A stretch of 64,000 nucleotides of DNA from an uncultured Chlamydiae bacterium (GTDB lineage: Bacteria; Chlamydiota; Chlamydiia; Chlamydiales; JAJFMA01): contig CAVQMM010000001.1 in assembly GCA_963713615.1 (NCBI GenBank), forward strand, positions 3,424,001-3,488,000, given 5' to 3'. Below the pieces are notes generated by a model, which saw only the letters and a program-made list of their open reading frames with translations, was not told the DNA's origin and made no database searches. Shown here piece after piece: positions 42,827 through 59,528 of this stretch; the first letter of the stretch is position 1; each line of letters opens with the position of its first letter. A program made the position numbers and the translations under genes.

Positions 42827-42910
42827 GCTCGGATGGTGAAATTGGTAGACACAAGGGACTTAAAATCCCTCGGGCGCAAGCCTATGCCGGTTCGAGTCCG
42901 GCTCCGAGCA
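42827..42910 (+). tRNA. tRNA-Leu(TAA), CCA not encoded
   Basis: Acceptor GCTCGGA/TCCGAGC, anticodon arm AGGGA-CTTAAAA-TCCCT, long variable arm, GGTTCGAGTCC. Confidence 0.97.
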
Positions 42911-43016
42911 TTTTGACCTTTAAGACGTTACGTCTTGCTACATGACCTCCTAACCATTGAGATCAAAGAACGTGGGTACCTGGTGGGTACCTACAAGAAA
43001 AATGGGAGGTATTAGT

Positions 43017-44102
43017 ATGGCGTACATAGAAAAAAGACCAAACGCGAAGGGTGAAACTTCATACCGTGTTCGCATCAAAGTGAAAGGGGCCCCAAAAAAG
43101 ACGGCGACGTTTCCAACTCGTAAGGAAGCTGCTGCTTGGGCAAGAAAAATGGAGGCTGAGGTCCGAGCTACCAGATATTTTGGTAGAGAAGAAGGCAAAG
43201 AGCGGACATTTTCTGAGTTCATTGATAGATATATTGAAATCGAGTTGACAAAGAACCCTCAAAGCTTTGAAAAGCTGTCCAAGCAATTAAGATGGTGGCA
43301 AAAGCATCTGGGAGAGTATTTTTTATGTCATATTTCTCCTTCGATGATTGCAGGTCTTAGAGATCGGCTCATGACTGAGATAACGTATCGAAAAACGCCT
43401 AGATCTTCATCTACAGCTAACAGGTACATTGCCGCTCTTAATCGCGCTTTTAATATAGCTATATGCGATTGGGGATGGCTAAAGGAGAATCCTCTATCAA
43501 AAGTCACAAGACCGAAAGAAATGAAGGCTAGAGATAGGTATCTTGATAAAGACGAGATTGTTTTGCTGCTGTCTGCTTGCCGTAGAAGTAAGAGCCCCTA
43601 TTTATATCCAGTAACATTATTTGCTCTTGCGACAGGTGCTAGAAAAGGTGAAATAGTAGGTCTGAAATGGGAGGATGTTGATTTTTTCCGAGCTACTGCT
43701 ACATTTCGAGGCACAAAAAATGGTGAAATCCGTACGGTACATTTGAGCCCGTCGATTCTAAAATGTCTTCAAGATGAACAGAAGAAGAGAATTGTTTTTA
43801 GCGTATATGTCTTTCCAGATCAAAATGGTACACAGCCTGCTTGTATAAGAACCGCCTGGGAGCGAGTCATCAAGGAATTAGGCATGAAGGATGTTGTTTT
43901 TCATTCGTTGCGGCATACAGCAGCCTCCCATCTTGCTATGCAGGGATTTTCAACGCTGGAAATCGCGGCTATTCTTGGCCACAAGAGTCTATCCATGGTT
44001 AAACGCTATAGCCATCTGTCAACTTCGTCAACCGCCAAAGCGTTGGATAGGTTGAATGAAATATTTGGGGGATGTCTAGATGACTACGAAAAAGCGCAGT
44101 AG
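43017..44102 (+). CDS. Tyrosine integrase
   Basis: TGARKGE (R), TKNG (K), FHSLRH (HxxR), LGHK, KRYSH (Y); GGAGG RBS. Confidence 0.95.
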   Translation: MAYIEKRPNAKGETSYRVRIKVKGAPKKTATFPTRKEAAAWARKMEAEVRATRYFGREEGKERTFSEFIDRYIEIELTKNPQSFEKLSKQLRWWQKHLGEYFLCHISPSMIAGLRDRLMTEITYRKTPRSSSTANRYIAALNRAFNIAICDWGWLKENPLSKVTRPKEMKARDRYLDKDEIVLLLSACRRSKSPYLYPVTLFALATGARKGEIVGLKWEDVDFFRATATFRGTKNGEIRTVHLSPSILKCLQDEQKKRIVFSVYVFPDQNGTQPACIRTAWERVIKELGMKDVVFHSLRHTAASHLAMQGFSTLEIAAILGHKSLSMVKRYSHLSTSSTAKALDRLNEIFGGCLDDYEKAQ

Positions 44103-44955
44103 TTTTGTGCATTCATCTCGTGAGAAAAAACAGAGCTATGAAGACATTATCGATACCTTGACGAGTTCAGCGCATGATGCTGCGAAATTATGTAGATCTG
44201 CTGCGAAATTGGCTCAAAAATACGCCGAACTGGGAGGAGAGGTCGATAAATATCGAGCCCAAATTGAAAATACGCCTTTTATTATTTCTGTTCCTTTTTG
44301 GGCAAGATATATACAGCATGATAAGGTATTCGGTGGTAGATATCTCGATATGACGGCGCAGTTACTAGAAGTGAACCCAGTTCTGAGGGATGAGAAGTTA
44401 ACCTTTAAAGTTTTTGCGGAAAACAAATACAAACAAGTTCTCGAAGAGATTCGTTGTTACGAGCAGTGGTCATTAGAGCTGCGAGAAGAATTTGTTTCGT
44501 TCTATATTGTTTTTGAGCATTGGTTGTCAGAATTAACTTTTGGCTACTTGCCTAAAGTAGAAGATTACGACAGAAGAGTGACTGAAAGAAAAAAATTGTC
44601 TTTTGATATGTATATTAAGATTCTCAGCAGGCTGGGTGATAGGGAGAAAATACTGGCTAAGTTGTTTTATCTCGGAGGCTATAGAACGCTTGATGAGGTA
44701 CTTTCTGTAAAAATCGAAGACATCGATTTTCAAGAACAATCCCTAGTATTATCAGATGAATCGATTCGATATCCTCAACATGTCTTTAGTGACTTAAAGG
44801 ATTTTATAAAAGATAGAGAAAAAGGGTATGTCTTTTTAGGTCGTCGTGGAGAACGTCTAGACCATACTGTTCCTTATAGGGCGTTGAAAACAGCCATTTC
44901 GAAATTGGACTTAGATTCATCATTCACTTTTAAGGACTTCGTAAATACCCTATAA
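44080..44955 (+). CDS. Chlamydial-plasmid pGP7/pGP8-like tyrosine recombinase homologue, C-terminally truncated
   Basis: REKILAKLFYLGGYRTLDEVLSVKIEDIDF..YP...GYVF; ends FTFKDFVNTL with no HxxR or catalytic Tyr. Confidence 0.65.
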   Translation: MTTKKRSSFVHSSREKKQSYEDIIDTLTSSAHDAAKLCRSAAKLAQKYAELGGEVDKYRAQIENTPFIISVPFWARYIQHDKVFGGRYLDMTAQLLEVNPVLRDEKLTFKVFAENKYKQVLEEIRCYEQWSLELREEFVSFYIVFEHWLSELTFGYLPKVEDYDRRVTERKKLSFDMYIKILSRLGDREKILAKLFYLGGYRTLDEVLSVKIEDIDFQEQSLVLSDESIRYPQHVFSDLKDFIKDREKGYVFLGRRGERLDHTVPYRALKTAISKLDLDSSFTFKDFVNTL

Positions 44956-45050
44956 AGGTTCTTTTTTTTTGCGGAAAATATGCACTAAGTGTTGCGTTTT
45001 TCTGCACATTACGTTACATTCCCTATTGATCTCAATGGTTAGGAGAATGT

Positions 45051-45260
45051 ATGCAAGTTATCAAAAACCTTATCTCTCTCAGTGAATATTGCCACCAAAA
45101 TGAATGGCCAAGAAAGACAATTTGGAGACATTGGATTTATTCCAAAAAACCAATCGCTGTGAAATGTGTCAAAAAGATCGGTGGCAAGTATTTTATAGAC
45201 TTGAAAGCCTTTCAAGACCATATCGAAAGCGCTTCCCTCGAAGAACGGAGGAGCGAATGA
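45051..45260 (+). CDS. Excisionase/AlpA-like small winged-helix protein
   Basis: 69 aa; LISLSEYC..W.RHWI..VKKIGGKYFID; located between integrase and replication genes. Confidence 0.6.
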   Translation: MQVIKNLISLSEYCHQNEWPRKTIWRHWIYSKKPIAVKCVKKIGGKYFIDLKAFQDHIESASLEERRSE

Positions 45261-45263
45261 GCA

Positions 45264-46754
45264 ATGGAAATAGTCGGAACGCCCCCGAACTCAAAAGAGT
45301 CGGAAATGATGGTTTTAGGGTGCATGTTAACAAGTACTCATGCCCTTAAGGTTTCTGTTGAGTTGCTAGACGATTCAGACTTTTTTCACACTCAACACAA
45401 ACCGATCTTTCAAATTCTTAAAGAACTCCATAAATCTGACAAGCCGGCCGACACTCACCTGGTAGCAGAAGAGCTTAAACGACAAAATAAGATTGAATCC
45501 GTGGGTGGCGTCGGTTACTTGACGACGCTGGCCCAGTATGCTGGGACGTCTGCACACATTGAAGCGTACATCGACGTAGTTCGTGATAAGGCAAGTTTGA
45601 GACAACTGCTCGACCTAACTCAATCTATCGAAAGAGACGCTCTCAGTAATGCATCTGATGTTTCCAAAACAATCGAAGATGCCCAATGTCGTCTCAATCG
45701 CTTTAGACAATCAGTTGAACTCGAAAGCAATAACGGACCTTTTTTTGAAAATCTCGGCAAAATTATTGGTGATACAGACTTTGCCCATAGTCTTGACAAC
45801 AGAAATTACGATAGGTTTGAGCGTGAACACAAGCGTCTTTTTTCTTTAGGGGGTTTAATCACTGGATACCAGGAAATAGATGATCAAATGTATTTCTCGA
45901 AAGGGGATTTTGTCGTAGTTAAAGCTCTGAGCAACCACGGTAAATCAACTTTTATGCTGCAACTTGCTTATGAATTCTTAAGCAACGAATCCAATCTAGA
46001 ACAAGATCCTGTCTGCATTTTTGTCACTTACGAATCAATACCGATACGGATCGAAGAAAAAATGATTAACATCATTGGCAAGGATCAATTAGAAGGGCCG
46101 CCTATTTTATACAACAAATCAATGAAAGAGAAATATCTCTACGCAGACAAAAAAAGTTACAGAAAAACGATAATGACATACGACAAACTGTTGTCGGAAA
46201 ATCGGATACACTTACTCAAGGGAATTCCATTGGAGAAGTTAGACCTTTTGGTAAGGCTGTATAAGAAAGAGTATCCTGGACGCACCATCTGCCTTTTTTT
46301 GGATTATATACAGATTATGGAATCCGTGACGGACCTTAATGGTTGGGAAAGGATGAAACACATAGCCTATCTTCTCGAATCGTTAGCCATTAACAGAGAG
46401 GTCATTGTTTTCGCCGCCTGTCAAGTGAATGAGAATAGGCAAACCAGAGAAGGAAGGGATATTTATAATGCGGCTACCACAGTCGTTGACATATTCAATC
46501 ATTCACATGCCTCACTGAAAAATAACCAAGAGCTTGCAAAGCAATACAAACCACCAATATCCAACAAGAACGTTTGTTCATTTTCTGCGGAAAAGCAAAA
46601 ACATGGATCGTCATTCACTCTAGATGGGTATTTCCTGTTTGACGGGTTTTGCTTCAGAAAAAATGAGTCAAAAAGTCAGCACAAGATAGACAGCTTGAAA
46701 GATAGAGAATATGACGACAGCGGAAACCAAATAATATGTAAATTAAATTCATAA
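45264..46754 (+). CDS. DnaB-like replicative helicase
   Basis: PPNSKESEMMVLGCML DnaB N-domain; ALSNHGKST Walker A; FLDYIQ Walker B. Confidence 0.85.
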   Translation: MEIVGTPPNSKESEMMVLGCMLTSTHALKVSVELLDDSDFFHTQHKPIFQILKELHKSDKPADTHLVAEELKRQNKIESVGGVGYLTTLAQYAGTSAHIEAYIDVVRDKASLRQLLDLTQSIERDALSNASDVSKTIEDAQCRLNRFRQSVELESNNGPFFENLGKIIGDTDFAHSLDNRNYDRFEREHKRLFSLGGLITGYQEIDDQMYFSKGDFVVVKALSNHGKSTFMLQLAYEFLSNESNLEQDPVCIFVTYESIPIRIEEKMINIIGKDQLEGPPILYNKSMKEKYLYADKKSYRKTIMTYDKLLSENRIHLLKGIPLEKLDLLVRLYKKEYPGRTICLFLDYIQIMESVTDLNGWERMKHIAYLLESLAINREVIVFAACQVNENRQTREGRDIYNAATTVVDIFNHSHASLKNNQELAKQYKPPISNKNVCSFSAEKQKHGSSFTLDGYFLFDGFCFRKNESKSQHKIDSLKDREYDDSGNQIICKLNS

Positions 46755-46762
46755 AGGGCGGA

Positions 46763-48421
46763 ATGTCGATTTTAGAATGTGACCAAATAAAAAGACAAAT
46801 TTGTGTAATGGGCAACAAGGAAAACACAGGGAAGAAATATGTTTATCTTGCAAATGGTGTACCTATTGGGGAAAGGCTCGTAAAGATCAAAAATGAAATA
46901 GAAGTACCATGCCAAGAAGCAGTCCCAACAACGCACGTGCTGGCGATTCCCCCTAACATTGACAGTGAAGAATTCGTAAAAGTCCAAAACGTCGAAACTG
47001 GCGAGACAAATTTAGTTAAAGTTAACCAAGAACAGACAAAGATTGAATGTTTGAAAATTTTTAATGAAACTAGAAATATGGGAACAATTGCTTGGCTTGA
47101 AAATGGCATCCAAGTTTCTTGCTTATATTATAGAGTCGAAAACGGTCAAGAAGTAATCTGTGAGCCTTCCAATAATGAAAGCTTCCTTTTTGTTCCCCTT
47201 CCAAATGGCGCCCCGGATTTTTCGTCACATATGGGGGATCTTCCCATGTATGACCAGGCCACAGGGCAACTTATAGGGCGCATCAAACGGTCAAATATTA
47301 TCAAAATAAACAAAGAAACCGAGATAAAAATAAAAGACCAAGACAATGAAAGATCAAAGGAAATTTCCACAAAAATAAATGAACTTTCTAATGAAGAAAA
47401 AGAACAAATTATTGAAAGTATTCACAAAACATGTGAACCGGTAACAACCTTAGAAGGGCGACAACTTTTCACCGCAACCGTTGAGCAAGTGGCCGAAACA
47501 ATAGGGAATTTGATTAATGAAATTGAGGAAATTTCATCTGATTTTTATAAAACGGTCGACCCCAAAGAAGAATTTGGAATCAGTCGGGTTGTTGCGGACA
47601 AAATATACAATCTTCCCAGGATATTGGAGAACGCTATTCTGGTAAGACAGGGGGTAACGACAACTTACATTATTCAAGCTGAGTATAAAGACTCTCGTCA
47701 TAATTCCATACGTTTGGAGCATCGTTTGCAGGCCACTTCTCCAGAAGAAGCCGCAAGAATGGGGAAGATCGTTCTAAAGAGGCTTAAGGGCATTCAACTC
47801 AAAATATGGGCGGCATGCTGGAAGATGGCTAATGCTAAGGAAAGGCTTACCTTCACTTGTCGTTTAACCGATCTCATGAAATGCACCAACCCTCGACGCA
47901 GTGCTAATTTAAACTCGGCAGAGAAGCTTGAATTTTACGAGCACTTGAGAAGTCTGGAAAACACCAAGTTTGTGTATACAAAATACTATAAAATAAGAGG
48001 TAAAGATAAAGTCGAATCATATGAAATTCGACTTCTTGAGATTCATCGACGAAGCGGCGATAAAGACGAAGAAACGCCACAAGAACTAACCATGACGGTC
48101 TTGAATGCGCCGGCTCTTCAGAAGCAAAAAACAACATTTGTGGGTGTTGGAGTCAAAAACAAGACATTAGAACTACATGCTGACAATGTCATGCTTGCCA
48201 GTATCATTCAAACCCGTAAGAACCAAATGATGGATGCGTCTCACGTTAAATTTAAGCGGGATGATTTAGTTGAAATAGCGGGTTTGTCTAGGACAAATGA
48301 AAAAAATAAGGCCGAGGCGAATAAACTGTTGTTGGAAAAACTAGAACGCCTTCGAGAGAAGGGTATAATTTTGAACCGTCTAAAACGCGTAAACGACCAT
48401 ATCTCTTTAAAAGTTAGGTGA
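46763..48421 (+). CDS. Putative replication initiator (Rep-like)
   Basis: 552 aa between DnaB-like helicase and iterons; basic C-terminal half; call rests on context. Confidence 0.5.
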   Translation: MSILECDQIKRQICVMGNKENTGKKYVYLANGVPIGERLVKIKNEIEVPCQEAVPTTHVLAIPPNIDSEEFVKVQNVETGETNLVKVNQEQTKIECLKIFNETRNMGTIAWLENGIQVSCLYYRVENGQEVICEPSNNESFLFVPLPNGAPDFSSHMGDLPMYDQATGQLIGRIKRSNIIKINKETEIKIKDQDNERSKEISTKINELSNEEKEQIIESIHKTCEPVTTLEGRQLFTATVEQVAETIGNLINEIEEISSDFYKTVDPKEEFGISRVVADKIYNLPRILENAILVRQGVTTTYIIQAEYKDSRHNSIRLEHRLQATSPEEAARMGKIVLKRLKGIQLKIWAACWKMANAKERLTFTCRLTDLMKCTNPRRSANLNSAEKLEFYEHLRSLENTKFVYTKYYKIRGKDKVESYEIRLLEIHRRSGDKDEETPQELTMTVLNAPALQKQKTTFVGVGVKNKTLELHADNVMLASIIQTRKNQMMDASHVKFKRDDLVEIAGLSRTNEKNKAEANKLLLEKLERLREKGIILNRLKRVNDHISLKVR

Positions 48422-48432
48422 TTGAGTATGGC

Positions 48433-48494
48433 CTAGGGGTTTAACTTAGCCGATCTAGGGGTTTAACTTAGTCGAGTTAGGGGTTTAACTTAGC
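48433..48494 (+). repeat. Iterons, three copies with 22-bp period (putative ori)
   Basis: TAGGGGTTTAACTTAG at 48434, 48456, 48478. Confidence 0.85.
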
Positions 48495-48955
48495 TTTTTA
48501 CGAGAGGAAAATGGGTCATTAAGACCTTAAGTCATTAAATGGCGGCTTGCGCCACCCCGCCTTGACGGCGGGTGGCTAGCCTTCGGAACGAGAAGACCTT
48601 ATCCCCTCAACAAGCTCATCATCTGTCAGCCTTTACCCTCCAAGGCCGACGCATTTTAAGGCACCTAGAATCGCTTATCGTTCGAAATCCGTGATTGTAG
48701 CCATTTTAAGCATCCGGCGCATTCTATGGTCGTTTCTGTGCGTTTTAAGCTACGCCAAGGATTCTCTCCCGTATTCCATCACTCCGAAAAACCTTTCAGC
48801 TTACAAGCCCGCTGCTGTTTCTTCTTTTGTGAAGGTGATGGAGTCTCAGGCACCCAGATGATAAGACACGGACATCTGAAATGAGGCGTCAAAAAAAACG
48901 AAACAGAGAACCTGATTTCTTTAAATCTTTAAATCTGGTAGCATAAAGGAAACAG

Positions 48956-49222
48956 ATGGAGGGTAAAGCTATGTCTGCCAAAAGCAATATATCCCGCATG
49001 ACGATAGATCTTCCCAGTGAGGACCATAAAAGACTAAAAGCTCTTGCTGCCGTACTTGGTAAAAGCATGAGAGAAATTGTCTCTGACTGGATTCACGGGA
49101 ATCTATACAGCGGGAATGTTCCTAATGCTGGAACACTGAAAGCTATAGAGAACATAGAGAAGGGAAAAGACCTGATTGTGTCTACGGACGCCGAGGAATT
49201 ATTCCGAAGGCTAGGAATATAG
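48956..49222 (+). CDS. RHH antitoxin (DinJ/RelB-like)
   Basis: RMTIDLP..HKRLK RHH; PNAGTLKAI..EELF..L; overlaps toxin start. Confidence 0.8.
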   Translation: MEGKAMSAKSNISRMTIDLPSEDHKRLKALAAVLGKSMREIVSDWIHGNLYSGNVPNAGTLKAIENIEKGKDLIVSTDAEELFRRLGI

Positions 49223-49491
49223 TGGTGCTAATCCCAGTCCACCTGCGCTCTTTTGAGCGAGAGTTAGAAAAGCTCAAGAAACGAGGCTATGACATGTCAA
49301 AAATTAAGACTGTCATGCGTGACCTTATCAGCGAAAAGCCTCTAGATAGGAAGCACCGCAATCACCGATTGAAGGGTAACTTCGTCGGATATTGGGAATG
49401 TCATGTTACGCCTGATTGGTTGCTTATCTACAAAAAGGATGATGAGCACATCTATTTCGCTCGAACTGGAACGCATTCCGACCTATTTTAG
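49222..49491 (+). CDS. YafQ-family mRNA interferase toxin
   Basis: H.LKG..WECHV.PDWLLIY..RTGTHSDLF. Confidence 0.9.
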   Translation: MVLIPVHLRSFERELEKLKKRGYDMSKIKTVMRDLISEKPLDRKHRNHRLKGNFVGYWECHVTPDWLLIYKKDDEHIYFARTGTHSDLF

Positions 49492-49594: not shown

Positions 49595-50164
49595 TCAAAA
49601 TAGCTGAAGCGGAACGAACAAAGGGAGACCTCCCTGATCGGCTGGATCTTCGTCCTCCTCCTCTTCCTCCTCAGGGTATTCTTCTTTTGTGGCTAGGAAT
49701 TCCCCATACTGCTCTTGTGTGATCATGCCTTGTTGCAGGCTACAGAGCATGAGAGCATCGAAATCATTCATCTTACCGATACCGATTCGGCCATACTTTT
49801 TGAGTGACTCTGTATCGCCAAGGGCTGTTAGATGAAGTTCGAGCTTTAGTTGCAGACTCTCTAAGCTCTGCATTACATCCTCCGGATCCTCACCTTCGAA
49901 CGCTTCCAATTCTTTGATGTATTCGGCTATTTGGCTTCTTGGAAGGCTTTTGGTGTACAACGCATCTAGCACATTTTCCCAGGCTCTAGACTCAGCAACA
50001 CCCCATACCTTCATAAATTTCTTATTGATGTTGGCGATCTTCTCGAATTCGTCTAAGGAAATCCCTTTCTCTTTGAGAAAGTCATTCACCGAAAAGGCAT
50101 CTTTCCGCTGGCTCCACTGCTCTAATTCTAAGAATAATTCTTCATGTTCTGTCGTTGCTTTCAT
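49595..50164 (-). CDS. Hypothetical protein; N-terminus resembles the neighbouring TerS, acidic tail
   Basis: W..F..F..KGI.....KF...A pattern shared with 51696-52136. Confidence 0.5.
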   Translation of the reverse strand: MKATTEHEELFLELEQWSQRKDAFSVNDFLKEKGISLDEFEKIANINKKFMKVWGVAESRAWENVLDALYTKSLPRSQIAEYIKELEAFEGEDPEDVMQSLESLQLKLELHLTALGDTESLKKYGRIGIGKMNDFDALMLCSLQQGMITQEQYGEFLATKEEYPEEEEEEDEDPADQGGLPLFVPLQLF

Positions 50165-50173
50165 AGGACTCCT

Positions 50174-51715
50174 TTAATAGTGACTTACACCTGAAAAGTC
50201 ACCGTAAAGCGGATGCGGCGGCTCATGGAAAGCTGCCATCTGCTTTCGGTACAATTCTTCATCTTCTGCTTGCGTGGTGGCTCTTCTTAGGCTCATCGCC
50301 AGGTACCTAAAAGCATCACTGCCGTTTGAGAAATGATCATGTCTAGGATGGTCACGCCATACACCTAGCGTCTCATTCCATTCTTTTCGATAGTTTTCCA
50401 GGGCTCGGATTCCTTTCTCGCATTTCACCTCATCAAACCAACAACGGTTTAGCAAGTTCCTCACGGCGTCTATACCTTCCTGCAACCCAAGCCTCGGCAA
50501 CACTGCGAATTCAAGCCCAAGATTCCTGGCAATCTGCACACGTGTCAAGCCCGACCCTAGTTCGTGACTGCTGGCATCGTGCGGAGCAAAAACCCTCTCC
50601 GTGACGTATGGTTTCCCTTTGATAACCTTGATATAATGGGCCAGCGGTTCCCCCGAATTTTCGTAATAGTCTATCAACCGCAACTCTGCGCCTAGCTTCT
50701 GATACCACCATATCGCCATAGCATCGTTAAAGCCCAAGTCCATAGCAACAAATACGGGTAAATTCTCATCATGCGGAACATTTCCGATCCGTCTTTCTAC
50801 ACGTGCCTTGGTCATGTATTTACTGTAATAATTCCCTTCAAGGTTGGCTTGGAATGCTTCTTCCGGCGTGCTAGGATACTCCCTTAGCATATCGTCGCCC
50901 TGGGTCTTATACTTGGTGGCATACCAGCCCATCTGTGCCGGTGAAATTTTGATGCCATAGCTTTCTTGAAGCTCTTTGAAGTACTTCACTAAGTCATCTG
51001 GAATGTGCACAGATGCATTGAGGCAATACTCTGGGTGTTTGTGGCAAGGCATAAAATGAAACTTGTAATCTAGCGGTGTAAGTGTTTTGCCGGTATCCCG
51101 CAACTTCTGCGCTTCCACACACAAATTATAAAATGCCCCTTCCCGGCCTCTTGCTGTGCTTTCGATAAAGCAATAAGAACCAGTGGATATTGTATTTAGC
51201 GAGCCAGTGAGGATCTCGTTAGCCCTTTTAATGTCCTCAGCGGCAATTTTGCCGAATTCCGAGATCAAAAGATACTGGAAGGTTGCCGACCGTAAGCTTG
51301 TTCCGACCCTGATTAGGCTGTTGTTGGAAAAGGTTAGTTCCTTAGCGGAGTCAATCTTAGCCTCTACACATGCTTTTAAAGACTCCGGCAAGCAGTCGTA
51401 GGCAAATTTAATCTTACGAAATATGTATTTGGCGTTCTCTTCCGTGTCGGCGACAATACCGCACGAAACGTTAGAGTTGAACAGGGCTATGTCGAGAAAC
51501 AAAAGCGTCACAAAGGTTGTGATACCTAGCTGTCGCGCCTTCAATATGATGTTACAATAGTGCAAGTCGTTGTGTAGCTGCTGCTGAGCCCAGTTTCGCT
51601 TGAATATCTGCTTTATCCCTTGCTTGTCCGTGATGTAGTAGAGATTGTCTATTCTCCAATCCCTATCACCTAGCCGTGACTGGGCTATTTCCAGGTCATT
51701 TTTCATTGCCACCAT
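50174..51715 (-). CDS. Phage terminase large subunit
   Basis: LKARQLGIT Walker A, LLISEF Walker B, IESTARG, EYPSTPEEAF, MDLGFND, HFSNGSDAFRY. Confidence 0.9.
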   Translation of the reverse strand: MVAMKNDLEIAQSRLGDRDWRIDNLYYITDKQGIKQIFKRNWAQQQLHNDLHYCNIILKARQLGITTFVTLLFLDIALFNSNVSCGIVADTEENAKYIFRKIKFAYDCLPESLKACVEAKIDSAKELTFSNNSLIRVGTSLRSATFQYLLISEFGKIAAEDIKRANEILTGSLNTISTGSYCFIESTARGREGAFYNLCVEAQKLRDTGKTLTPLDYKFHFMPCHKHPEYCLNASVHIPDDLVKYFKELQESYGIKISPAQMGWYATKYKTQGDDMLREYPSTPEEAFQANLEGNYYSKYMTKARVERRIGNVPHDENLPVFVAMDLGFNDAMAIWWYQKLGAELRLIDYYENSGEPLAHYIKVIKGKPYVTERVFAPHDASSHELGSGLTRVQIARNLGLEFAVLPRLGLQEGIDAVRNLLNRCWFDEVKCEKGIRALENYRKEWNETLGVWRDHPRHDHFSNGSDAFRYLAMSLRRATTQAEDEELYRKQMAAFHEPPHPLYGDFSGVSHY

Positions 51716-52136
51716 TAATCAGATCCCTTGATTTTCCGTCGACCTGCTGCATTAAGAATGCTAGGGGGTTAGCTGCATCACCTGTGAGGTGTGTCTCTTT
51801 CTTTTCGAAAATCCCGTAATGGTGACCTAAAAGTAGATGGGCCATATTGTAGTTGAATTTCTTCATAAGCCCTCCCTCGATTAACAAGATGCGTTGATGG
51901 GCTTTTGCCTGTCCGTACGCTCCAGCAAACTTTTCGTTCTCAGATGCGAATTTACTAAGCAGATCTGGATTGATTCCTTTTTGCAGTGCAAATCTCTCGA
52001 ACCAGCAAAATTTTCCTTGTTCTAGCCATTTCAGCAGTTCATCGGCTAAATTCTCTATAAATTCCTGGTCGTAAGTTTTCGGCCTTCCTCCTTTCTCACA
52101 GCCTGGATATGGCTCATGTCCTTTAGGCGCTGGCAT
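51696..52136 (-). CDS. Terminase small subunit (P22 gp3-like)
   Basis: MPAPKG..GRPKTY..; directly upstream of and overlapping TerL. Confidence 0.7.
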   Translation of the reverse strand: MPAPKGHEPYPGCEKGGRPKTYDQEFIENLADELLKWLEQGKFCWFERFALQKGINPDLLSKFASENEKFAGAYGQAKAHQRILLIEGGLMKKFNYNMAHLLLGHHYGIFEKKETHLTGDAANPLAFLMQQVDGKSRDLINGGNEK

Positions 52137-52509
52137 ATTCAACTTCCTTCGAGTAGACTCGGTCAAGGTAGTCGCAAAATGTTTTGACCATATCTGCGTG
52201 GATCCAAAATTCTGGATCATCCAGGGAAGCAGCCCCACTGCCTGGGAGGCTGTGAGATCTGTTAACAACGGTCATGGGGTCTAGCAACACTCGCCTGGTT
52301 TCTTTTGAGTGGTCGGCTTCTAACGCCCTTTGCGGCTTATCCAATGCTAGATAAACCCTATGGGCTATGCGTCCATACTTGAACCCGAGAGCACTAAAAG
52401 ACTGATGATCACCAGCCTTATCTGCCACGGCAATTGCTGGCCTGGCTTCCTGTAGTAGTAGATCAATGTCTTCTTGAATCTGAGTTTCCATAAAAAAACC
52501 TCTATACAT
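52123..52509 (-). CDS. Hypothetical protein
   Basis: 128 aa ORF overlapping the TerS start, same strand. Confidence 0.5.
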   Translation of the reverse strand: MYRGFFMETQIQEDIDLLLQEARPAIAVADKAGDHQSFSALGFKYGRIAHRVYLALDKPQRALEADHSKETRRVLLDPMTVVNRSHSLPGSGAASLDDPEFWIHADMVKTFCDYLDRVYSKEVEYASA

Positions 52510-52634
52510 TAAATGTTTACTATAACATTTTTTTTATTCAATTCCATTTCTGAGTGCATATGTCTTCTTTTTAATGGGTGCGCCATTCCGTTAACGAAAA
52601 ATGGTCCACACCCAATGCCTAACGGCCCCGCCAA

Positions 52635-53126
52635 CTAAACTGGTTCAGGTTTAAGTTCTTTCAACAACGATTCCAGGTGACGGATTGTTTCCATTTTGTC
52701 AGTTGGTTTTTGCATCAATTTTCTGGCTGATTTTATTTTTTCTAAGTCCTGTTTAGTTAACTCGTTCTGCCGTTGTTTTTCCCGTTCATCCAAAAATTTT
52801 ATGGCATGGTCATAAGCGGCATTCACTTGCCATTTTGGTGGGATATCTTCCAATCGCACATGTGGTTTATCTCGATGTATTTTAAACAAGTCGTCAGCAA
52901 CATTATCAATATAAACTTGGCGTTCTTTCAAAACTTCAGCCTTCCCTTCATCTGAGTCTATATATTCGCGGATGTCTTGTTCCGGAATGCCTGTGTTCAT
53001 TGCTACGTTCTTGACTGCTTCATCGCTAACCGGGTTTTCAAAATGCCAAAGAGTATTAAAAAATTTGTCACCGAGAGGTGTTGGCCCCATATAATTATCC
53101 ATGAGTTCATTTGTTGTAATTGTCAT
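52635..53126 (-). CDS. Hypothetical protein
   Basis: 163 aa ORF, AAGGAG RBS. Confidence 0.55.
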   Translation of the reverse strand: MTITTNELMDNYMGPTPLGDKFFNTLWHFENPVSDEAVKNVAMNTGIPEQDIREYIDSDEGKAEVLKERQVYIDNVADDLFKIHRDKPHVRLEDIPPKWQVNAAYDHAIKFLDEREKQRQNELTKQDLEKIKSARKLMQKPTDKMETIRHLESLLKELKPEPV

Positions 53127-53208
53127 GACGTGCTCCTTATTAATTTAATGTTTCATTTTTCGTGATTTACCAGATTTAGGCATGGATTTTTCTCCATAAT
53201 GCCACTCA

Positions 53209-54906
53209 TTAACCAACTTTTCGTTTCAGCTCTGCAATCTTCATCATGGCTGCCAGCTTCGACATGCCTTCAGTTTCGACATTGTAACATTTCAAGAAAT
53301 ATCTTTGTTTGTCAGTGATTGGTTCACTTGCCATTGAACGCCTTTGCTTATTTTTCAGAGAAATAATCTTGCGGATTTCAATTGAGGCTTGAGCCTTGGT
53401 AAAGTTGTCATTCCACGCATTTTGGTTTTCAAGGTAAGTCCTTTGCGCTTGGGTTGGTACTTCCTCCCTTCTCATCCAAATTGCTTCTCTCAGATCACAG
53501 AAAGCAATCTTGAGATTCCTTCGGGCATAGTCTTCACAAACTCCGCTGCAATATTCGAGTGGTAGTGGGGTGTTGGTAATGTGGTGATGTGACCCATCTG
53601 GGCGATATAAAGTTGCTGCGTAGTTATTTCCTTCTGGTCTGATGACGATCTCATTTTTTTCATCATCCAGTAGGCTCCATTCATCGCCTACAGGAACCCA
53701 CATAAATCGGGCGCTACCTAGAATGTCGAACTCGTGATCTATCTCCTCAAGTACTTCGATTTTTGGGCGATTGTTGACTTCTTCGCGCTGCTCAGCGGCC
53801 TCTTTTGCCTCTCTGATGATGGAGGCTTCGGGGACGGCTGAGCTTAGCGACATGAGGGTGTCTAGGTTGTGGCCCTGATCGCTAAAGTCTAAAACTAGGC
53901 AATCTTGCTTCCCAGGCCATAGGCGCAAACCTCTGCCGATGCATTGAATGTATAGCGCTGCTGAACGTGTCGGCCTGGCCATGATTACCGCGGTAATGCT
54001 TGGTTCGTCATAGCCCTCGGTTAAAATCCCGCATGATGTTGCAAGCTGAACCTTGCCGCTTTTGAGATCATTTAAAGCTTGCTTGCGATCCGGTGGTTCC
54101 ATATCGCCCCAAACAGCGACGGCGGGAATCCCTGCATTGTTGAAGGCGGCGGCTAGGTCCTGGCAATGCTCGACATTGCAGCAAAAGGCGACGGTCTTCC
54201 GGCCATTAGCATATTCCTGAAACTTGCCGACGATGAATGCGTTTCTCTCCGGGGTGTTGACGGCCTCGGCCAGCTCGTTAATGGCAAAGTCACCGTTTTG
54301 GGTCCGGATTCTTTCCAGAACAAAGCTAGTAAGGATTTTGCGACCAATCACAGGGGAGAGATACCCGGCCCGAATCATTGTACCGATTGAGCGGGAAAAT
54401 GTGATCTTGTCGAAGGTGTCGCCTAATGGTTGTTTGTCGCCCCTGGCTGGGGTTGCTGTGACGCCGACTAAAAGCTTGTCTGTTCCCTTTGAGAATCCGC
54501 AGGCGTTAATGATGCTTTGATAGCTGTCGGCTGCGCTGTGATGCGCTTCGTCTATCATCATCAAGTCGAAGCCTAGACTTTGGAGCTTTTCTAGGCGCTT
54601 CGGCCTGCTGCATGACTGGACGGATCCGACTACGATCTGATGGTGGATCTCATCCCTCTCGGCCATACAAACGCCGATGCTAACGCCTGGCCAAAAGAGG
54701 CGGAATTTGTCCACTGCCTGGGCTATCAATTCCTCTCGATGTGCTAATATAAGAGTCTTTTTGTCTAACACTTTGGCTAGAGCCGCCATGACTATGGTTT
54801 TACCCGATCCCGTTGGAAGGTGGACAAGAAGACGCTTATGGCCCGAATAGTAGTCTTGGAGAATCTCATCTATGGCTTCTTGTTGGTAGTCTCGAATGGA
54901 TACCAT
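53209..54906 (-). CDS. SF2 DEAH helicase (ResIII/RadD-Irc3-like)
   Basis: RDYQ, PTGSGKT, IDEAHH, TATP, EGYD, QCIGRGLR. Confidence 0.9.
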   Translation of the reverse strand: MVSIRDYQQEAIDEILQDYYSGHKRLLVHLPTGSGKTIVMAALAKVLDKKTLILAHREELIAQAVDKFRLFWPGVSIGVCMAERDEIHHQIVVGSVQSCSRPKRLEKLQSLGFDLMMIDEAHHSAADSYQSIINACGFSKGTDKLLVGVTATPARGDKQPLGDTFDKITFSRSIGTMIRAGYLSPVIGRKILTSFVLERIRTQNGDFAINELAEAVNTPERNAFIVGKFQEYANGRKTVAFCCNVEHCQDLAAAFNNAGIPAVAVWGDMEPPDRKQALNDLKSGKVQLATSCGILTEGYDEPSITAVIMARPTRSAALYIQCIGRGLRLWPGKQDCLVLDFSDQGHNLDTLMSLSSAVPEASIIREAKEAAEQREEVNNRPKIEVLEEIDHEFDILGSARFMWVPVGDEWSLLDDEKNEIVIRPEGNNYAATLYRPDGSHHHITNTPLPLEYCSGVCEDYARRNLKIAFCDLREAIWMRREEVPTQAQRTYLENQNAWNDNFTKAQASIEIRKIISLKNKQRRSMASEPITDKQRYFLKCYNVETEGMSKLAAMMKIAELKRKVG

Positions 54907-55050
54907 GGCTAAGTCACAGGTAAGTTAAAATTACAAATGTATGTTATGAAATCGTTTATGTCAACGGCTGTATAACTCCCATTAGACAAAAATCACAGCA
55001 TTGCTGATAATACTCCCATTTACATCAAATGTGATAAATTGGAGCCTTAG

Positions 55051-55749
55051 ATGCGTGTCGTTTTGGTATGCTTGTTGGCGCTAGGATATGCGACGTTTAT
55101 ATTTCTACCTTCATTCTATAGCAATTGGTCTAATGATGAGGCTGTGGGACGTTGGGAAATGGATCTAGCGAATCGTCAGATTGATGACCTTCAAGAGCAG
55201 ATTAGTGCATTACGTGATTCGGAAAAGAAGCAGTGGGATAGCATCGTTTTTTGGTCAAAACAAGGAAATGACCTGTCAAAACAATTTTCTGATCATCAAT
55301 TGAAATATTTCGAAGAAAAGAGACAGCTTGTTGCTGTCCTTAACGCCAAGGAGTCTGCTTTTCGGACTATTCACTCATGCGATTGTGTGTTCTTTGTCAG
55401 CATCAAAAGCGTTAGCCATTACCTAGATGGGTATAAGGTTCTTTTCAAGATAGGGAATACATCGAACGTTACGTTCACAAATCCAAAAATCAAAATCGAA
55501 TGGAACACCTATCCTACTTTTGATGTTACCCTGTCTCTTGATGAAATATTGAAGCGCAATGACGAATGGAAGAAAGCAAACAAAGAAAAGACATTCTCTA
55601 TTGCAGGTAACCTTAATCCAGGAGAATGGTCTAATGTAGAGCTATTTCTAAGCCCTTGCAGCGAGCAGGAACTGGAATATATCAGATTGTCTATAGAGCC
55701 CTCTCCAGCACAATTAAATGTATCTGCACAAACCTTGATTAGTCTGTAA
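55051..55749 (+). CDS. Membrane-anchored coiled-coil protein (DUF3251-like C-terminus)
   Basis: N-terminal TM; VSIKSV..YLDGYKVLFKIGN..IEW. Confidence 0.5.
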   Translation: MRVVLVCLLALGYATFIFLPSFYSNWSNDEAVGRWEMDLANRQIDDLQEQISALRDSEKKQWDSIVFWSKQGNDLSKQFSDHQLKYFEEKRQLVAVLNAKESAFRTIHSCDCVFFVSIKSVSHYLDGYKVLFKIGNTSNVTFTNPKIKIEWNTYPTFDVTLSLDEILKRNDEWKKANKEKTFSIAGNLNPGEWSNVELFLSPCSEQELEYIRLSIEPSPAQLNVSAQTLISL

Positions 55750-56062
55750 GCTTCACAGGCCTTCCACTTGTGAGCTCTGCTCCACGCTTAGGGAAGGGCT
55801 CTTTTCGTGCCTTCTCAAGCTTGTCTACAGCGATAGAAAGGGCCTCTACAGCCAAGGACGTCAGCGTCAAACCTGGAGTCCAGTAGACGGCGTTCTTGAC
55901 GCGCTCAATGACGTCGACGGAGATCTGCACGGTGATCCGTTGTTTTGCTTGCGATGCGCGGTTGATTTGTGGTGCCTCTTCCATGACAGCGGTATTCCCG
56001 TTTTGCTTGGGAGTAAGCTTGTTGTTGTGTGGGTTGCTTTCGGTATTGAATTTCTTGGCCAT
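55739..56062 (-). CDS. RHH DNA-binding protein (CopG/ParG-like)
   Basis: KQRITVQISVDVIERVKNAVYWTPG. Confidence 0.6.
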   Translation of the reverse strand: MAKKFNTESNPHNNKLTPKQNGNTAVMEEAPQINRASQAKQRITVQISVDVIERVKNAVYWTPGLTLTSLAVEALSIAVDKLEKARKEPFPKRGAELTSGRPVKLTD

Positions 56063-56323
56063 GCTAATTCCTATCTATCTCTGCGTTGGTGGCGTCTGAA
56101 ATGCTGCCATTTTCAGCAAATAAAGTATAGAGGCTCTTTAAGAGGTGACGATATTCTAGCAAAGTACCTCCGTAAGTTAGTGGACTAGGCTCATGAAGAG
56201 CATTCTCTGTTCATTGTCACTGCCCGGTGGCGTAACAAAGCGGTTGCTTCATATTGCATGCAATGGATAATGTGTCTCCCACTAAAGCGCATTAACGACT
56301 GCAATTGAGCAAAACGGAAAATC

Positions 56324-57001
56324 ATGAGCTTGCTGGTTTATACACGGGTAAGCACTGAGGCTCAAACAGATAGCGTGGCTGGCCTCGAAGCACAACTAGA
56401 TGCTTGCGAAAGCTATGCGAAGCATCACGGCCTTACCATCCCCAAAATTTATCGCGATGAGGGCATCAGCGGAGCTGTTGAGATGGAGCATCGCCCTGGC
56501 CTTATGGAAGCGCTGAATGGGCTTAAGAAAGGATAACATCCTACTTGTAGCAAAGCGAGACCGGTTGGCCCGTGACACATACGCCGCGGCGTTTATCAAA
56601 CGCACTATAGAGAAGCAGAAAGCTCGCATTGTTTCCGCCGCTGGCGAGGGCACGGACCAGAACGACCTGGCAAGCCGAATGTTAACCGGTATTATCGACG
56701 TTTTTGCTGAATATGAACGCGATGTTATCAAAGCTAGGACTAAGGCGGCTCTCCAAGCCATGAAGCGCGAGGGCAAACGCGTAGGGCATATTCCCTTCGG
56801 GTACCGGCTAGCGCCATGTGGAGTGTATCTGGAGAATCGTTGGAAGAACAATATATTCTTCGGCACATGTATGAACTTCGCTCGCGAGGACTTTCAATCC
56901 GCACAATCGCTACAGCATTAAATGAACAAGGAGTCTTTAATAGAAGACAAGCCAGATGGAACAACGCAAGCGTGCATCGGGTAATGATAAAGGCTGCATA
57001 G
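56324..57001 (+). pseudogene. Serine recombinase (resolvase family) split by two frameshifts
   Basis: YTRVST..DEGISG..RPGL / DRLAR..FAEYER..PFGY / SIRTIA.ALN in three frames. Confidence 0.85.
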
Positions 57002-57228
57002 CAATGAAACTGGGTAAATTTGCTAAGACCACTTCAGCTGCCGCTGGTGAACTTAAGCAATCGATGAAAAAAAGTGGCAAAAAGTGGGATTTGTCGGCAC
57101 AATACGCGTTGTATCTTGGCATGTTATCTTTGTTAATAGCAACTTGCCTCAGTTTTTTGACCTTACAATCGAATTGAAATCCCAGTCGGTTACGGTTCGC
57201 CTTCGTCTCTGGGCAGCTTTCTAATGCG

Positions 57229-58383
57229 GTGGCCTTCATGAGTATTCCATCCTTGTATTATCTCGATACCACCGGTGTGGCTTTATTTTGCAATGGTGAG
57301 CATGTAGATAAATATTTTTCATTGATAGCGCCTAGCTATCGAACTGAGATCTCTGCAATTCTTAGATTGGGTTCCATTGTCATTACTCCTTATTGGGTTC
57401 TTGAAGTTTTGGGGGTTCGTCTTAAATTAATTAATCAAGCACTTGAGCAAAAGTTGCGCGAGAAACAGGATCTTCAAATAAATCTGAAATTGTCTGATTC
57501 TGATGAGGCTTGGCTAGAGAAAATTGCGAATATCCATTCGTTTGCGGATGATTACTATAACCAGCATCCTTTGCTTAGGGACCAAGAGTTGAAGGCTCTG
57601 CTTGGGGCGGCACATTCAAGAATATTCCCTGTGAACCATTCGTCTATTTTTAGCTATAGGATCTGGCAAGGTTTGGAAGGATGGCTTGACCGGCCGGGCG
57701 CACATGCGGAGTTATGTAAGTGGTTGACGTACTCAGTTCCGGAAAGGCACATAGATTTGCTAATCCCAAAGCATATTCATCAATCTTCTGAAATAAGACA
57801 GCGCTTACAGAACCATTTGATGGCGGGATATGTTACAGCTTGGAAAAAGGGGATTAATATGAGCGGATGTGAAGGATTATTGCATAGTCTTGCTGTTCTT
57901 AATCGAAAGCCCTCAATTGATTTCCGACCAAAAAATCGAGACGGTCTGCCGATAGAAGTTAAACCGTTTCGCGCATTCAACGATAGGGCCGATATTGATG
58001 TCGTGCAGATGTTGACTATGGGAGCTTTTGGCACTTTAAGTAGGCTCGAAAAAACTGCGGTGTTTTCAGTAGAGGCAGAAGAAAATATTGTTGCTAGAGT
58101 ACATCCATATCAAACTTTATTTGCTTACGCTAAAGAAAAATTTTCGTCTAACAAGCATCTACAGCTACCCTCTGATTTGAAACCGGGGGTTCGTTACCAG
58201 GTCGTTATTGATAAAGTTGAAGGAGATGGTCGATATATCGCCAAGACACAGTTTCTGGAAACTCGATACAATGCTGATACGTCTCAGGTGGCATGGGACT
58301 GGAAGTCAAAGAATATGGCTCAAGAAGGGTGCAGTAACAACCTCGCAGAGTCAACACCAGTTGTCCCCGATCTATCGGCCTAA
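57229..58383 (+). CDS. Hypothetical cargo protein
   Basis: 384 aa ORF, no recognised motif. Confidence 0.55.
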   Translation: MAFMSIPSLYYLDTTGVALFCNGEHVDKYFSLIAPSYRTEISAILRLGSIVITPYWVLEVLGVRLKLINQALEQKLREKQDLQINLKLSDSDEAWLEKIANIHSFADDYYNQHPLLRDQELKALLGAAHSRIFPVNHSSIFSYRIWQGLEGWLDRPGAHAELCKWLTYSVPERHIDLLIPKHIHQSSEIRQRLQNHLMAGYVTAWKKGINMSGCEGLLHSLAVLNRKPSIDFRPKNRDGLPIEVKPFRAFNDRADIDVVQMLTMGAFGTLSRLEKTAVFSVEAEENIVARVHPYQTLFAYAKEKFSSNKHLQLPSDLKPGVRYQVVIDKVEGDGRYIAKTQFLETRYNADTSQVAWDWKSKNMAQEGCSNNLAESTPVVPDLSA

Positions 58384-58540
58384 TACTGCAATTTTTTTTG
58401 TCTCCTGCGCAGGTTTGGGTCCGATGTAAATTTTATCCACTATTTCTAAAGAGCTTAGTCACTGCGTCATAACTTCATGATTATAGACAGCTTAAGGAGT
58501 TTGTGGCATTATACTCTACCTTAACCTATGCGGAGGCATT

Positions 58541-59257
58541 ATGAAGAGGTTTATTACGCTATTGGTTATGCCGTTGGCTATAAATTCAGTAATTTTAGGC
58601 GATGATGGAGATGCATGTTTAAAGGCGGGCATTAACTGCACTGAAATTGCGTATTTAGACACGGTTCGAAAAATCGAAGAAGAATTTCTAAGCCTTCCAC
58701 GTGAATTTCTTGTTAACGAGTCACAATGCAACGATGGAAGCTATGAAAAATTTAATAAACGAATCGAAGCATTTGGGGAACAATATGAAGCATTAGGAAA
58801 CAAGTTTGAGGCCTTACTAAAAGAATTAAACTTTGCACCATCCAATAATAGCTTACACAGAGTTTATAGTGAGTATGATTCTTTTTTTGCGAAGCTCAGA
58901 GAGATCATGCGCACTAAATACTGGAAAGATTATCTTTTGAATCACGGCATGAGAATAGTCAACTCTGGCCTAGGGGATACCTACAAAGTTTTCTTTGAGG
59001 AAGAACGCCATATCCCTTGCGAAGGGAAAAAAACAATCAGATATCGGATCTCCCCGCTCACCGAGCTTAGGAGCTTCTGTGAAGATATCAAAAATGTTAA
59101 TATTCTGCTGCTGAACGAGAATAAATTCGAAGTTTTCAGGTTTTACGTGGGAGCTGTTTCAAAAGACAATGAAACTACAGGTAAGTTTGAAATTCCAGAA
59201 TCATATTATCAAGAATTTAATGAAATCACCCTGGTCGGTGACACAGCCACAAGGTAG
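58541..59257 (+). CDS. Hypothetical exported protein
   Basis: 238 aa, signal-peptide-like start, GGAGG RBS. Confidence 0.6.
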   Translation: MKRFITLLVMPLAINSVILGDDGDACLKAGINCTEIAYLDTVRKIEEEFLSLPREFLVNESQCNDGSYEKFNKRIEAFGEQYEALGNKFEALLKELNFAPSNNSLHRVYSEYDSFFAKLREIMRTKYWKDYLLNHGMRIVNSGLGDTYKVFFEEERHIPCEGKKTIRYRISPLTELRSFCEDIKNVNILLLNENKFEVFRFYVGAVSKDNETTGKFEIPESYYQEFNEITLVGDTATR

Positions 59258-59470
59258 TTTTGTGCTGATCGCATAATACGGGCCTGGGGCAAGCGGTCTA
59301 TGTTTAGGGTTTTTGTAATGGTTCTGGGGGCCCTGGCGGGCCCGAACGGGGCCTAACATCCCATATTTTCCCGTAACTTTCCAGAGCAAATCTCTGTACT
59401 CAGATCTAGCAAAATGCTAATCTTTTGCCCGTAATGTACTGGAGAATCATGTAGCGTTCTGAAAGAACCG

Positions 59471-59528
59471 GGGACTTAAAATCCCTCGGGCGCAAGCCTA
59501 TGCCGGTTCGAGTCCGGCTCCGAGCATT
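59471..59528 (+). repeat. attR (duplicated 3' part of tRNA-Leu)
   Basis: Identical to 42855-42912. Confidence 0.95.

Follow-up and report, generated by a model that had tools for sequence, protein, structure and literature searches.

A tRNA-Leu island of an environmental chlamydia that encodes its own terminase pair: a probable PICI-like phage satellite

A 64,000-nucleotide stretch of the genome of an uncultured, environmental chlamydia-type bacterium (contig CAVQMM010000001.1, positions 3,424,001 to 3,488,000; hereafter the window) contains a 16.6-kb island that encodes both terminase subunits and no recognisable virion genes. We consider it probable, at roughly 0.68, that the island is a satellite of the phage-inducible chromosomal island (PICI) kind that brings its own packaging motor and uses the heads of P22-like chlamydial phages. 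This reading is based on the attachment (att) sites, an intact integrase, an initiator fold accompanied by iterons, a terminase under selection, a family of portal-less relatives, and phages that fall within the same clade of the large terminase subunit (TerL). We further infer that the island would be induced, use a packaging (pac) site, dock on a portal and be transferred.

An att-bounded island with a terminase pair

The island is delimited by two 58-bp att cores (attL, 42855..42912; attR, 59471..59528; both plus strand), which are direct repeats of 100% identity lying 16,616 bp apart. The left copy corresponds to the 3′ part of the integration target, a tRNA-Leu(TAA) gene (42827..42910, plus strand; ARAGORN). 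The GC content is 43.3% in the island and 39.9% in its left arm, compared with 47.1% in window positions 1-42800. Genes occupy 89% of its length, and the iteron region, at 535 bp, is the widest gap between them. From left to right the island encodes int, an integrase-fold open reading frame (ORF) without the catalytic half, a 69-aa helix-turn-helix (HTH) protein, dnaB, a 552-aa ORF, 22-bp repeats, and an antitoxin-YafQ pair; on the opposite strand there follow a 189-aa ORF, TerL, the small subunit TerS, two small ORFs and a superfamily 2 (SF2) helicase, beyond which lie ORFs of 232 and 107 aa, a serine recombinase broken into three pieces by frameshifts and a pair of cargo ORFs. A first-pass annotation of the window had already proposed the perfect att repeats and a 16.6-kb inventory of integrase, DnaB, Rep-like protein, iterons, toxin-antitoxin (TA) pair, TerS/TerL, SF2 helicase and cargo, and the island is real as described there. 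Features beyond that list are the serine recombinase pieces, a TerS-like gene 3′ of terL, a 20-bp inverted pair and two extra att copies.

TerL (50174..51715, minus strand) matched phrog_2 (E 9e-33) and retains its ATPase and nuclease motifs. TerS (51696..52136, minus strand) is a P22 gp3-like protein of 146 aa when read from the ATG at 52136 (PF16677, E 3e-5); the ORF caller extends its start to a TTG at 52268. The pair is thus what it had been taken for. The three closest named TerL records come from Parachlamydiaceae or Chlamydiales (85, 79 and 74% identity), and these, together with the chlamydial plasmid matches of the second ORF, point to the phylum of the host. The nearest relatives of TerL are phage L001, described below (81%), and a third element (85%); the nearest relative of TerS is that of another island (G228, 62%), and its identity to the TerS of L001 is 31-32%. 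All 28 aligned TerLs, 23 from portal-less elements and 5 from phages, retain the Walker A and Walker B motifs, the coupling motif and the first nuclease motif, and 26 of the 28 retain the last acidic residue. The ratio of nonsynonymous to synonymous substitution rates (dN/dS) of TerL was 0.03-0.11 in 12 measurable portal-less pairs, several of them within a wholly portal-less clade of 19 rows, and 0.08 in the only phage pair that allowed an estimate; saturation affected 6 of the 19 pairs. Relaxed selection on TerL had been named beforehand as a sign against a satellite; these values indicate purifying selection. A truncated second terL (97% identical at the amino acid level, 89% at the DNA level over 913 bp) lies elsewhere in the same chromosome with a broken TerS-like copy (G000:C1:3725370-3726436), far from any integrase, and is the trace of another visit by a close relative.

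The phylogeny of TerL was examined in quick and FastTree trees. A 92-row FastTree, for which four duplicate contigs had been dropped, holds 41 portal-less, 35 portal-bearing, 11 undetermined and 5 outgroup sequences. The portal label changes nine times on this tree, five of them forced by strong branches, compared with 25.4 times in shuffles, and the 19-row portal-less clade has 99% local support. In three TerL trees the window TerL is sister to that of L001, inside a clade of four portal-less rows. A single origin of the portal-less TerLs was rejected by the approximately unbiased test (p 5.6e-15; 28-row subset, LG+G4), and therefore terminases move between phages and elements.

Particle genes were then sought in the island. 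No portal match was obtained and no free ORF of portal size is present, the only unassigned ORF above 300 aa being a 384-aa orphan. At the gene coverage given above, sequence searches recognised no capsid, tail or lysis genes in the island, as had been claimed for it, and no conjugation genes were seen. A capsid-morphogenesis gene, optional in type B PICIs, was likewise not recognised by sequence; the ORFs of 128, 163 and 384 aa are without an assigned family. Besides a weak match of the integrase, only TerS and TerL match phage proteins, and the island holds no Erf/RecT, YqaJ, RusA, repressor or structural gene of L001 or its kin.

Portal-less relatives and candidate helper phages

A search of 401 genomes of the same phylum with the window TerL resulted in matches in 40, including its own, and 25 of the others matched at E<1e-100. 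Forty fetched regions were mapped, and 20 regions were extended for att analysis. In 14 of these 20, TerS-TerL lies between tRNA-type direct repeats 10.0-29.9 kb apart (median 16.1 kb with the window included); in the other six, no closing repeat was found around TerL. The bounded islands occupy tRNA genes for Leu, Met, Ser, Thr, Tyr, Phe, Asn and Lys, and two have no complete tRNA in the contig. If the 14 islands and the window are taken together, TerL and TerS are each present in 15 of 15, a tyrosine integrase in 13 and the small HTH cluster in 12, and the replication modules are of at least five unrelated kinds, such as DnaB with Rep (two families), P4-type, TOPRIM and DUF-type primase-helicases. 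The exact order int-pGP8-DnaB-Rep-TerL, for which the first-pass annotation had suggested looking, is not what the family shares; the conserved core consists of int, a small HTH gene, any one replication module, TerS and TerL.

Among the 291 ORFs of the islands, comparison with the proteins of 18 chlamydial-type phage loci revealed no portal, capsid or tail gene; the exceptions are a pair of G095 island genes with counterparts in the G252 phage (47 and 58%). A further 150 ORFs (154 minus four judged by eye to be a host-type potassium-transport operon) received no head, connector, tail or lysis assignment from PHROGs, in which domain-level matches linked HNH domains to a TerS profile and a NUDIX domain to part of a portal profile. 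Portal/capsid operons in related elements had been set out in advance as evidence for a deleted prophage, and all 14 att-bounded elements were found to be without one. None of the 25 other genomes with TerL at E<1e-100 is among the six, of 400 scored, with an L001-type portal match. The satellite family is present in about 6% of the sampled genomes (about 24 of 401).

Several portal-less loci (L115, L125, L157, L160, L288, L366, L377, L390 and L395) carry, right after terL, one to three genes that resemble phage genes in the ejection position, the long ones with LPD38 domains; beyond these domains and the position, no Pfam or PHROG name supports the label of ejection protein. In other loci (L122:722-9330, L126, L127:11181-20000 and L118:11179-18107) terL is followed by cargo that includes acetyltransferases, an ABC transporter and nucleotidyltransferase-like genes, which we take to resemble resistance genes, as well as a type I restriction-modification set and a potassium-transport-like operon.

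A counterpart of the island backbone was identified in G403, a genome of the same family as the host, in which a 19-kb island without TerL occupies the same tRNA. Its integrase (59%), SF2 helicase (73%), 189-aa gene (78%) and 384-aa orphan (72%) match those of the window, and it also shares the pGP8-like, HTH and DnaB genes. It has ParA and a second recombinase, and a gene with an HGGxSTG motif and a 154-aa gene stand where the window has terS-terL. Because this backbone occurs with and without TerL, the terminase pair can be regarded as an exchangeable cassette on an island-plasmid hybrid, and the sequences indicate that the terminase was gained by such a hybrid and was not left by prophage decay.

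Candidate helpers were identified in the same phylum. L001, an IMG/VR contig of 34.9 kb, encodes TerS, the TerL that is 81% identical to that of the window, a P22-like portal (PF16510, E 1.5e-69), and then genes in the scaffold, capsid and tail positions. The L001 portal matched 6 of the 400 scored Chlamydiota genomes, five of them strongly; comparable sets of phage genes are found there, with phrog_156 portals and, in the two tested, phrog_1357 capsids. Of the 52 ORFs of L001, 21 match Chlamydiota prophage loci and five match 76 non-chlamydial TerL loci. The prophage of genome G284 lies in a 137-kb contig in which nine flanking genes match the host of the window, eight at 43-79% and one at 29%; an insert of small genes interrupts its terL. 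Scans of viral and metagenome sequences yielded many more phages of the L001 kind, and L001/G401, L148-L152, L167-L174, L289-L301 and L363-L397 make up a large family of 35-45 kb P22-like genomes linked to Chlamydiota. In these phages one portal family pairs with several TerL families, and a self-supplied motor could therefore serve many helpers. The unnamed tailed helper, phage or gene-transfer agent (GTA), that had been postulated thus finds candidates in P22-like phages of Chlamydiota genomes and metagenomes; the GTA half of that proposal is unsupported, as no HK97-type portal or capsid was found in the genome.

Replicon, regulation and other genes of the island

The replication genes point to a plasmid. 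The DnaB-type helicase (45264..46754, plus strand; DnaB N and C domains) is 42% identical to the host DnaB over 234 aa of its N-terminal part, and its residues 145-478 (334 aa) are 87% identical to the DnaB of plasmid-like contig L392. The 552-aa ORF (46763..48421, plus strand) matched nothing in Pfam, PHROG, NCBIfam or plasmid records, and neither its profile nor that of TerS gave a sequence match in the PDB. Its structural model (pLDDT 68.6) best matched domains 2-3 of RctB (Foldseek E 1.5e-4; VIA Z 9.0, rmsd 3.5, 137 aligned). Lower ranks, amid generic winged helices, were taken by Pi, RepA and RepE, and the protein is predicted to be a replication initiator (Rep) with a tandem winged-helix fold of the RctB/RepA type. 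Homologues were found in 14 other genomes of the 401 and follow a helicase gene in the intact mapped loci. Three iteron-like repeats of 22 bp, a predicted origin, lie 3′ of rep (48433-48498, plus strand), and 3-4 repeats of 22-23 bp are found directly 3′ of rep in 5 of 12 homologous loci. Because the predicted fold matches RctB and the repeats recur at homologous loci, DnaB, Rep and the repeats are best described, at the level of a model, as an iteron-type plasmid replicon. The initiator and iterons of the first-pass annotation are thereby retained; an identification of Rep with pGP2 was rejected (hhalign 0.1%). As for the primase-replicase module of PICIs, the replication genes of the island are of plasmid type, and many of its relatives have true primase-helicases.

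Kinship with free plasmids extends to the right arm. L176, a contig of 14,088 bp with a perfect 77-nt end overlap, is a circular plasmid that carries Rep, DnaB and ParA together with 107-aa, 232-aa and SF2 genes ordered as in the island, which supports the suggestion that the element was built partly from chlamydial plasmid genes. The 14.5-kb metagenome contig L392 encodes a DnaB split over its two ends, ParA, a pGP8-like recombinase, SF2, TerS and TerL; no portal match and no end overlap were found in it, and it is likely a circular plasmid with a terminase. A 12-kb contig, L113 (G112:C25), with ParA, a pGP8-like recombinase, a primase-helicase, a family A DNA polymerase and TerS-TerL, is a candidate plasmid-like satellite with its own polymerase.

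At the left end, the tyrosine integrase (42957..44102, plus strand; 381 aa; PF00589, E 6e-32; phrog_1) is 63 and 59% identical to those of the G095 and G403 islands and contains the R-K-H-R-H-Y-type motifs; it is intact, as had been annotated. The next ORF (44080..44955, plus strand) has a pGP7/8-like integrase fold without the C-terminal catalytic half and is found at the equivalent position in the G095 and G403 islands. All 54 plasmid records that it matches are chlamydial (Chlamydia, Simkania or Rhabdochlamydia), with an identity of just 24-26% in the best 20 of the 54, so that the proposed pGP8 kinship stands as to the source of the matches and is weak as to their level; we suggest that the protein is likely a DNA-binding regulator. 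Two 20-bp sites form a perfect inverted pair, one upstream of int (42947..42966, plus strand) and one upstream of the HTH gene (45026..45045, minus strand). The G095 island has both at equivalent positions, where they differ by 1 and 3 changes. A chromosome search that allowed up to 3 mismatches found no further copy, and the pair is a likely operator. The 69-aa HTH ORF (45051..45260, plus strand) is 50-57% identical to ORFs at the equivalent position in G095, L366 and G403, and it is a candidate for a PICI regulation module (alpA/merR/stl homologue). Its only domain match is HTH_17 at E 0.048; the Xis-like gene of the first-pass annotation is thus an HTH protein at a fitting position, for which an Xis/AlpA role is likely from that position. 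No divergent repressor was seen in the island.

A type II TA pair (48956..49491, plus strand) consists of a ParD/RelB-like antitoxin and a YafQ toxin, as had been annotated. The 189-aa protein encoded 3′ of terL (49595..50164, minus strand) is TerS-like in its N-terminal half. A comparison of its profile with the TerS alignment gave an hhalign probability of 70.8% (E 3.8e-5 over 51 columns), its hidden Markov model picked TerS proteins next among the compared ORFs (E 0.001-0.009), and the structural model (pLDDT 85.6) ranked Sf6 TerS first of 48,161 PDB chains (Z 6.5, rmsd 4.8, 87 aligned) and P22 TerS third (Z 5.3), both Z scores being modest. The protein has 38 database relatives and a dN/dS of 0.18-0.24 against G403; no relative was found among viral contigs and all BFVD matches were non-significant. 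In G403 and G124 the gene follows the HGGxSTG cassette without TerL. It may represent either an older, PICI-style second TerS or a decoy.

Upstream of terS lie two ORFs of 128 and 163 aa (52123..53126, minus strand), the former also present in G095 and L364 and the latter with two homologues. The SF2 helicase (53209..54906, minus strand; DEAD/ResIII-type), part of the plasmid arm, is 44-73% identical to the SF2 proteins of plasmid-like contigs and the G403 island; a defence role of the island was considered and rejected, as PADLOC gave generic helicase matches only. A 232-aa predicted membrane or exported protein (plus strand) and a 107-aa ParA-partner-like protein (minus strand; PrgO, E 0.003) are encoded at 55051..56062. 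ParA/pGP5 was not found in the island by tblastn with the ParA of four relatives and is present in the plasmid-like kin and the G403 island. A serine recombinase pseudogene (56324..57001, plus strand) is split into three pieces in different frames, with Resolvase/Recombinase Pfam matches on three ORFs. The cargo at the right end (57229..59257, plus strand) comprises the 384-aa orphan and a 238-aa predicted exported protein that is 30% identical to cargo of the G033 island.

Beyond attR, two more att copies of the same tRNA-Leu lie past the window end, at C1:3490885 and C1:3501358, and the region G000:C1:3483471-3501413 (window 59471-64000 onward) forms two further att-bounded tandem segments that carry an NYN protein, insertion sequence (IS) elements, TA pairs, a split integrase and a small HTH gene. 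Window 60895-62610 is occupied by an IS whose terminal inverted repeats are 33 bp long and whose DDE transposase has 519 aa; a second copy is located near C1:1456000. A 39-bp inverted repeat unit at window 42083-42247, with dozens of copies in the chromosome, belongs to a small repeat element of the host and has nothing to do with the island. The same chromosome holds two tRNA islands of about 15 kb each (Met, C1:1435752-1450540; Thr, C1:2918635-2933826) with an integrase, a small HTH gene and a primase-helicase of the same family and without a terminase. Promoter and terminator scans stayed at chance level (32 vs 30.3 and 21 vs 16.4), and a CRISPR repeat scan of the genome returned mostly tandem repeats. 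No clean empty attB was recovered at three same-genus sites, where synteny was too weak and two hold other island genes.

Proposed life cycle, alternatives and place among known satellites

In the life cycle that we propose, infection by a helper would cause an HTH/regulator switch that frees the integrase and the dnaB-rep operon, and the island would excise on this trigger. Rep would bind the 22-bp iterons and load DnaB. TerS, having diverged from the helper TerS, would recognise the pac site of the element itself, and TerL would dock on the helper portal and pack DNA into empty helper heads. With no capsid-shrinking gene recognised, about two element copies in a concatemer could fill a 35-40 kb head, and the helper would supply tail and lysis. 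Between infections the TA pair may stabilise the element. The element is a hybrid in which an integrating left arm is joined to a right arm of plasmid descent, the latter having acquired terS-terL. The TerS-like gene behind terL may have been retained from a packaging cassette without TerL, or may counter the helper as a decoy.

Several points weigh against this interpretation. The G403 island indicates that the backbone persists without TerL. No helper prophage, P22-type portal, HK97-type portal or HK97 capsid was found in the 99%-complete genome of the host, in a search whose controls were positive for three of the four families, phrog_1357 having no positive control. Absence calls have limits, as a single-protein portal search missed the divergent G014 portal and PHROGs, which nevertheless named two capsids homologous to that of L001, missed the L001 capsid itself; the claim that a capsid is absent is limited by the 384-aa orphan, which was assessed by sequence. 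Some phages have as much as 8-10 kb between terL and portal, so that short portal-less contigs are weak evidence, and several of the portal-less labels on the TerL tree rest on a replication gene and less than 1 kb of downstream DNA. The host range of the helpers is drawn from contigs of metagenome-assembled genomes, possibly mis-binned, with flanks checked for G284 and a decayed remnant in G086. The copy in the window shows some decay (the broken serine recombinase, the missing ParA, the truncated second terL in the chromosome). Lastly, attP joints or circles, an empty site and a virion-packaged copy were not seen in eight shallow public runs (short pieces only, shares ≤0.10), a result that is no evidence either way.

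The terminase might instead be kept for interference or for transduction of host DNA, jamming the helper or packaging flanking chromosome by the headful, with the element moving as a plasmid or otherwise. The optional TerL of the backbone (G403) and the decoy-like extra TerS-like gene suit this explanation, purifying selection is compatible with any function, and PICI-driven lateral transduction has been published (PMC12829572). We nonetheless find it unlikely: each of the 23 aligned portal-less TerLs has intact ATPase and nuclease motifs, for which a decoy would have no use, terS-terL adjoins the replication genes in a fixed order, and the long ejection-position genes of relatives (as in G095 against the G252 phage), whose role is read from position, make sense only if element DNA enters particles. 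The lack of visible conjugation genes and the generic PADLOC results also speak against it. It is somewhat less probable again that the satellite family is real and this copy is a stranded, partly decayed and immobile plasmid-island cointegrate. The broken recombinase and lost ParA fit such a fate, as do the two younger-looking tandem islands and IS elements behind the island, the lack of a helper in the genome and the lack of visible excision in the public runs. The att repeats are still identical, however, no interruption is seen in int, dnaB, rep, terS, terL or SF2, an integrated element can do without the genes that were lost, and the genes measured have a dN/dS of 0.03-0.24 against their nearest relatives.

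Descent from a prophage through deletion of the portal-to-tail block is already largely refuted, and we give it very little weight. The TerL similarity to a full phage, the repeated origin of portal-less TerLs and the ejection-position genes that directly follow terL in some relatives, as a deletion would leave them, are what it would predict, but the island has no other gene of L001 kin, its backbone matches plasmids and a TerL-less island, and the 19-member portal-less clade is under purifying selection. Least credible of all is a terminase that serves a host GTA or another chromosomal particle. Terminases encoded outside GTA clusters are known, and the genome has no helper prophage; the negative portal and capsid searches described above, and the patchy distribution of TerL (40 of 401 genomes) in mobile islands at many tRNAs, oppose it.

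Read as a PICI-like satellite, the island can be compared with known elements, for which we draw on the accessible parts of the papers cited. Like PICIs (Staphylococcus aureus pathogenicity islands, SaPIs, and Gram-negative types; PMC10085698), it has a tRNA-directed integrase, a small HTH gene, a replication module of its own, TerS, cargo that follows the packaging genes and a comparable size (the PICI median is 9.5 kb from int to the last core gene; PMC10085698), and no tail or holin. Unlike PICIs, it encodes an intact TerL of its own under purifying selection, TerL being listed as specific to capsid-forming PICIs (cfPICIs; PMC10085698), it replicates by DnaB and an RctB/RepA-fold iteron initiator in place of a primase-replicase, it has no recognised capsid-morphogenesis gene, and plasmid forms of its family exist. 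The main text of PMC10085698, as far as accessible, does not mention chlamydiae as hosts. With cfPICIs (PMC10085698; bioRxiv 2022.09.08.507074) the island shares its own TerS and TerL and a PICI-like left arm, but it is without portal, head-tail adaptor, connector and any capsid recognised by sequence, and therefore would steal heads as well as tails. It thus departs from PICIs in one defining trait, the possession of TerL, and from cfPICIs in portal and connectors, yet on our interpretation works like a PICI.

VEIMEs (integrative mobile elements that are encapsidated in virions; PMC9618062) resemble the island in having an integrase, a TerS and no recognised capsid gene; their TerS is close to those of co-occurring phages, and they encode a primase/helicase and AlpA, to which DnaB and the 69-aa HTH protein of the island may correspond. 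They are marine and mostly smaller (<5 to 16.8 kb), and their TerL is named as helper-supplied (PMC9618062). Our model of concatemer packaging in full-size heads is borrowed from VEIMEs, in which packaging has been observed. EPIPs carry TerS and a tape measure protein (PMC12822802). Like chlamydial plasmids (PMC7846284), the island has a pGP7/8-like recombinase, a DnaB helicase, a TA system and a ParA partner, and unlike them its initiator is not pGP2 and ParA/pGP5 is missing. A terminase has been noted as a phage-derived gene on two chlamydial plasmids (PMC7846284) and in PnaK_GI2, a 15-kb tRNA-Thr island of Protochlamydia naegleriophila (PMC5010888), and the accessible parts of these two papers describe no satellite family or helper phage. 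Our literature search, with most subscription papers and supplements outside it, found no description of this satellite type or of tailed phages of Chlamydiota, and the chlamydial phages that it returned are Microviridae with single-stranded DNA. Older electron micrographs are reported to show phage-like particles in Neochlamydia.

The island would represent a satellite design between PICIs, which have TerS only, and cfPICIs, which have a whole head: its own TerS-TerL with a borrowed head and tail, on a backbone that can be seen to have switched between cassettes with and without TerL. The satellite finders now in use would label it as prophage debris or as a PICI that is incomplete. On the question of how DNA passes from one obligate intracellular chlamydia to another, the island points to a route by tailed phages. 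With less assurance than for the island itself, we lean towards the wider view that environmental Chlamydiota host a tailed-phage system of 35-45 kb P22-like phages and a class of satellites with their own motor, some with their own ejection proteins, which occur as tRNA islands and free plasmids, swap terminases with their helpers, and may be a main route by which plasmids, TA pairs and cargo travel between these obligate intracellular bacteria.

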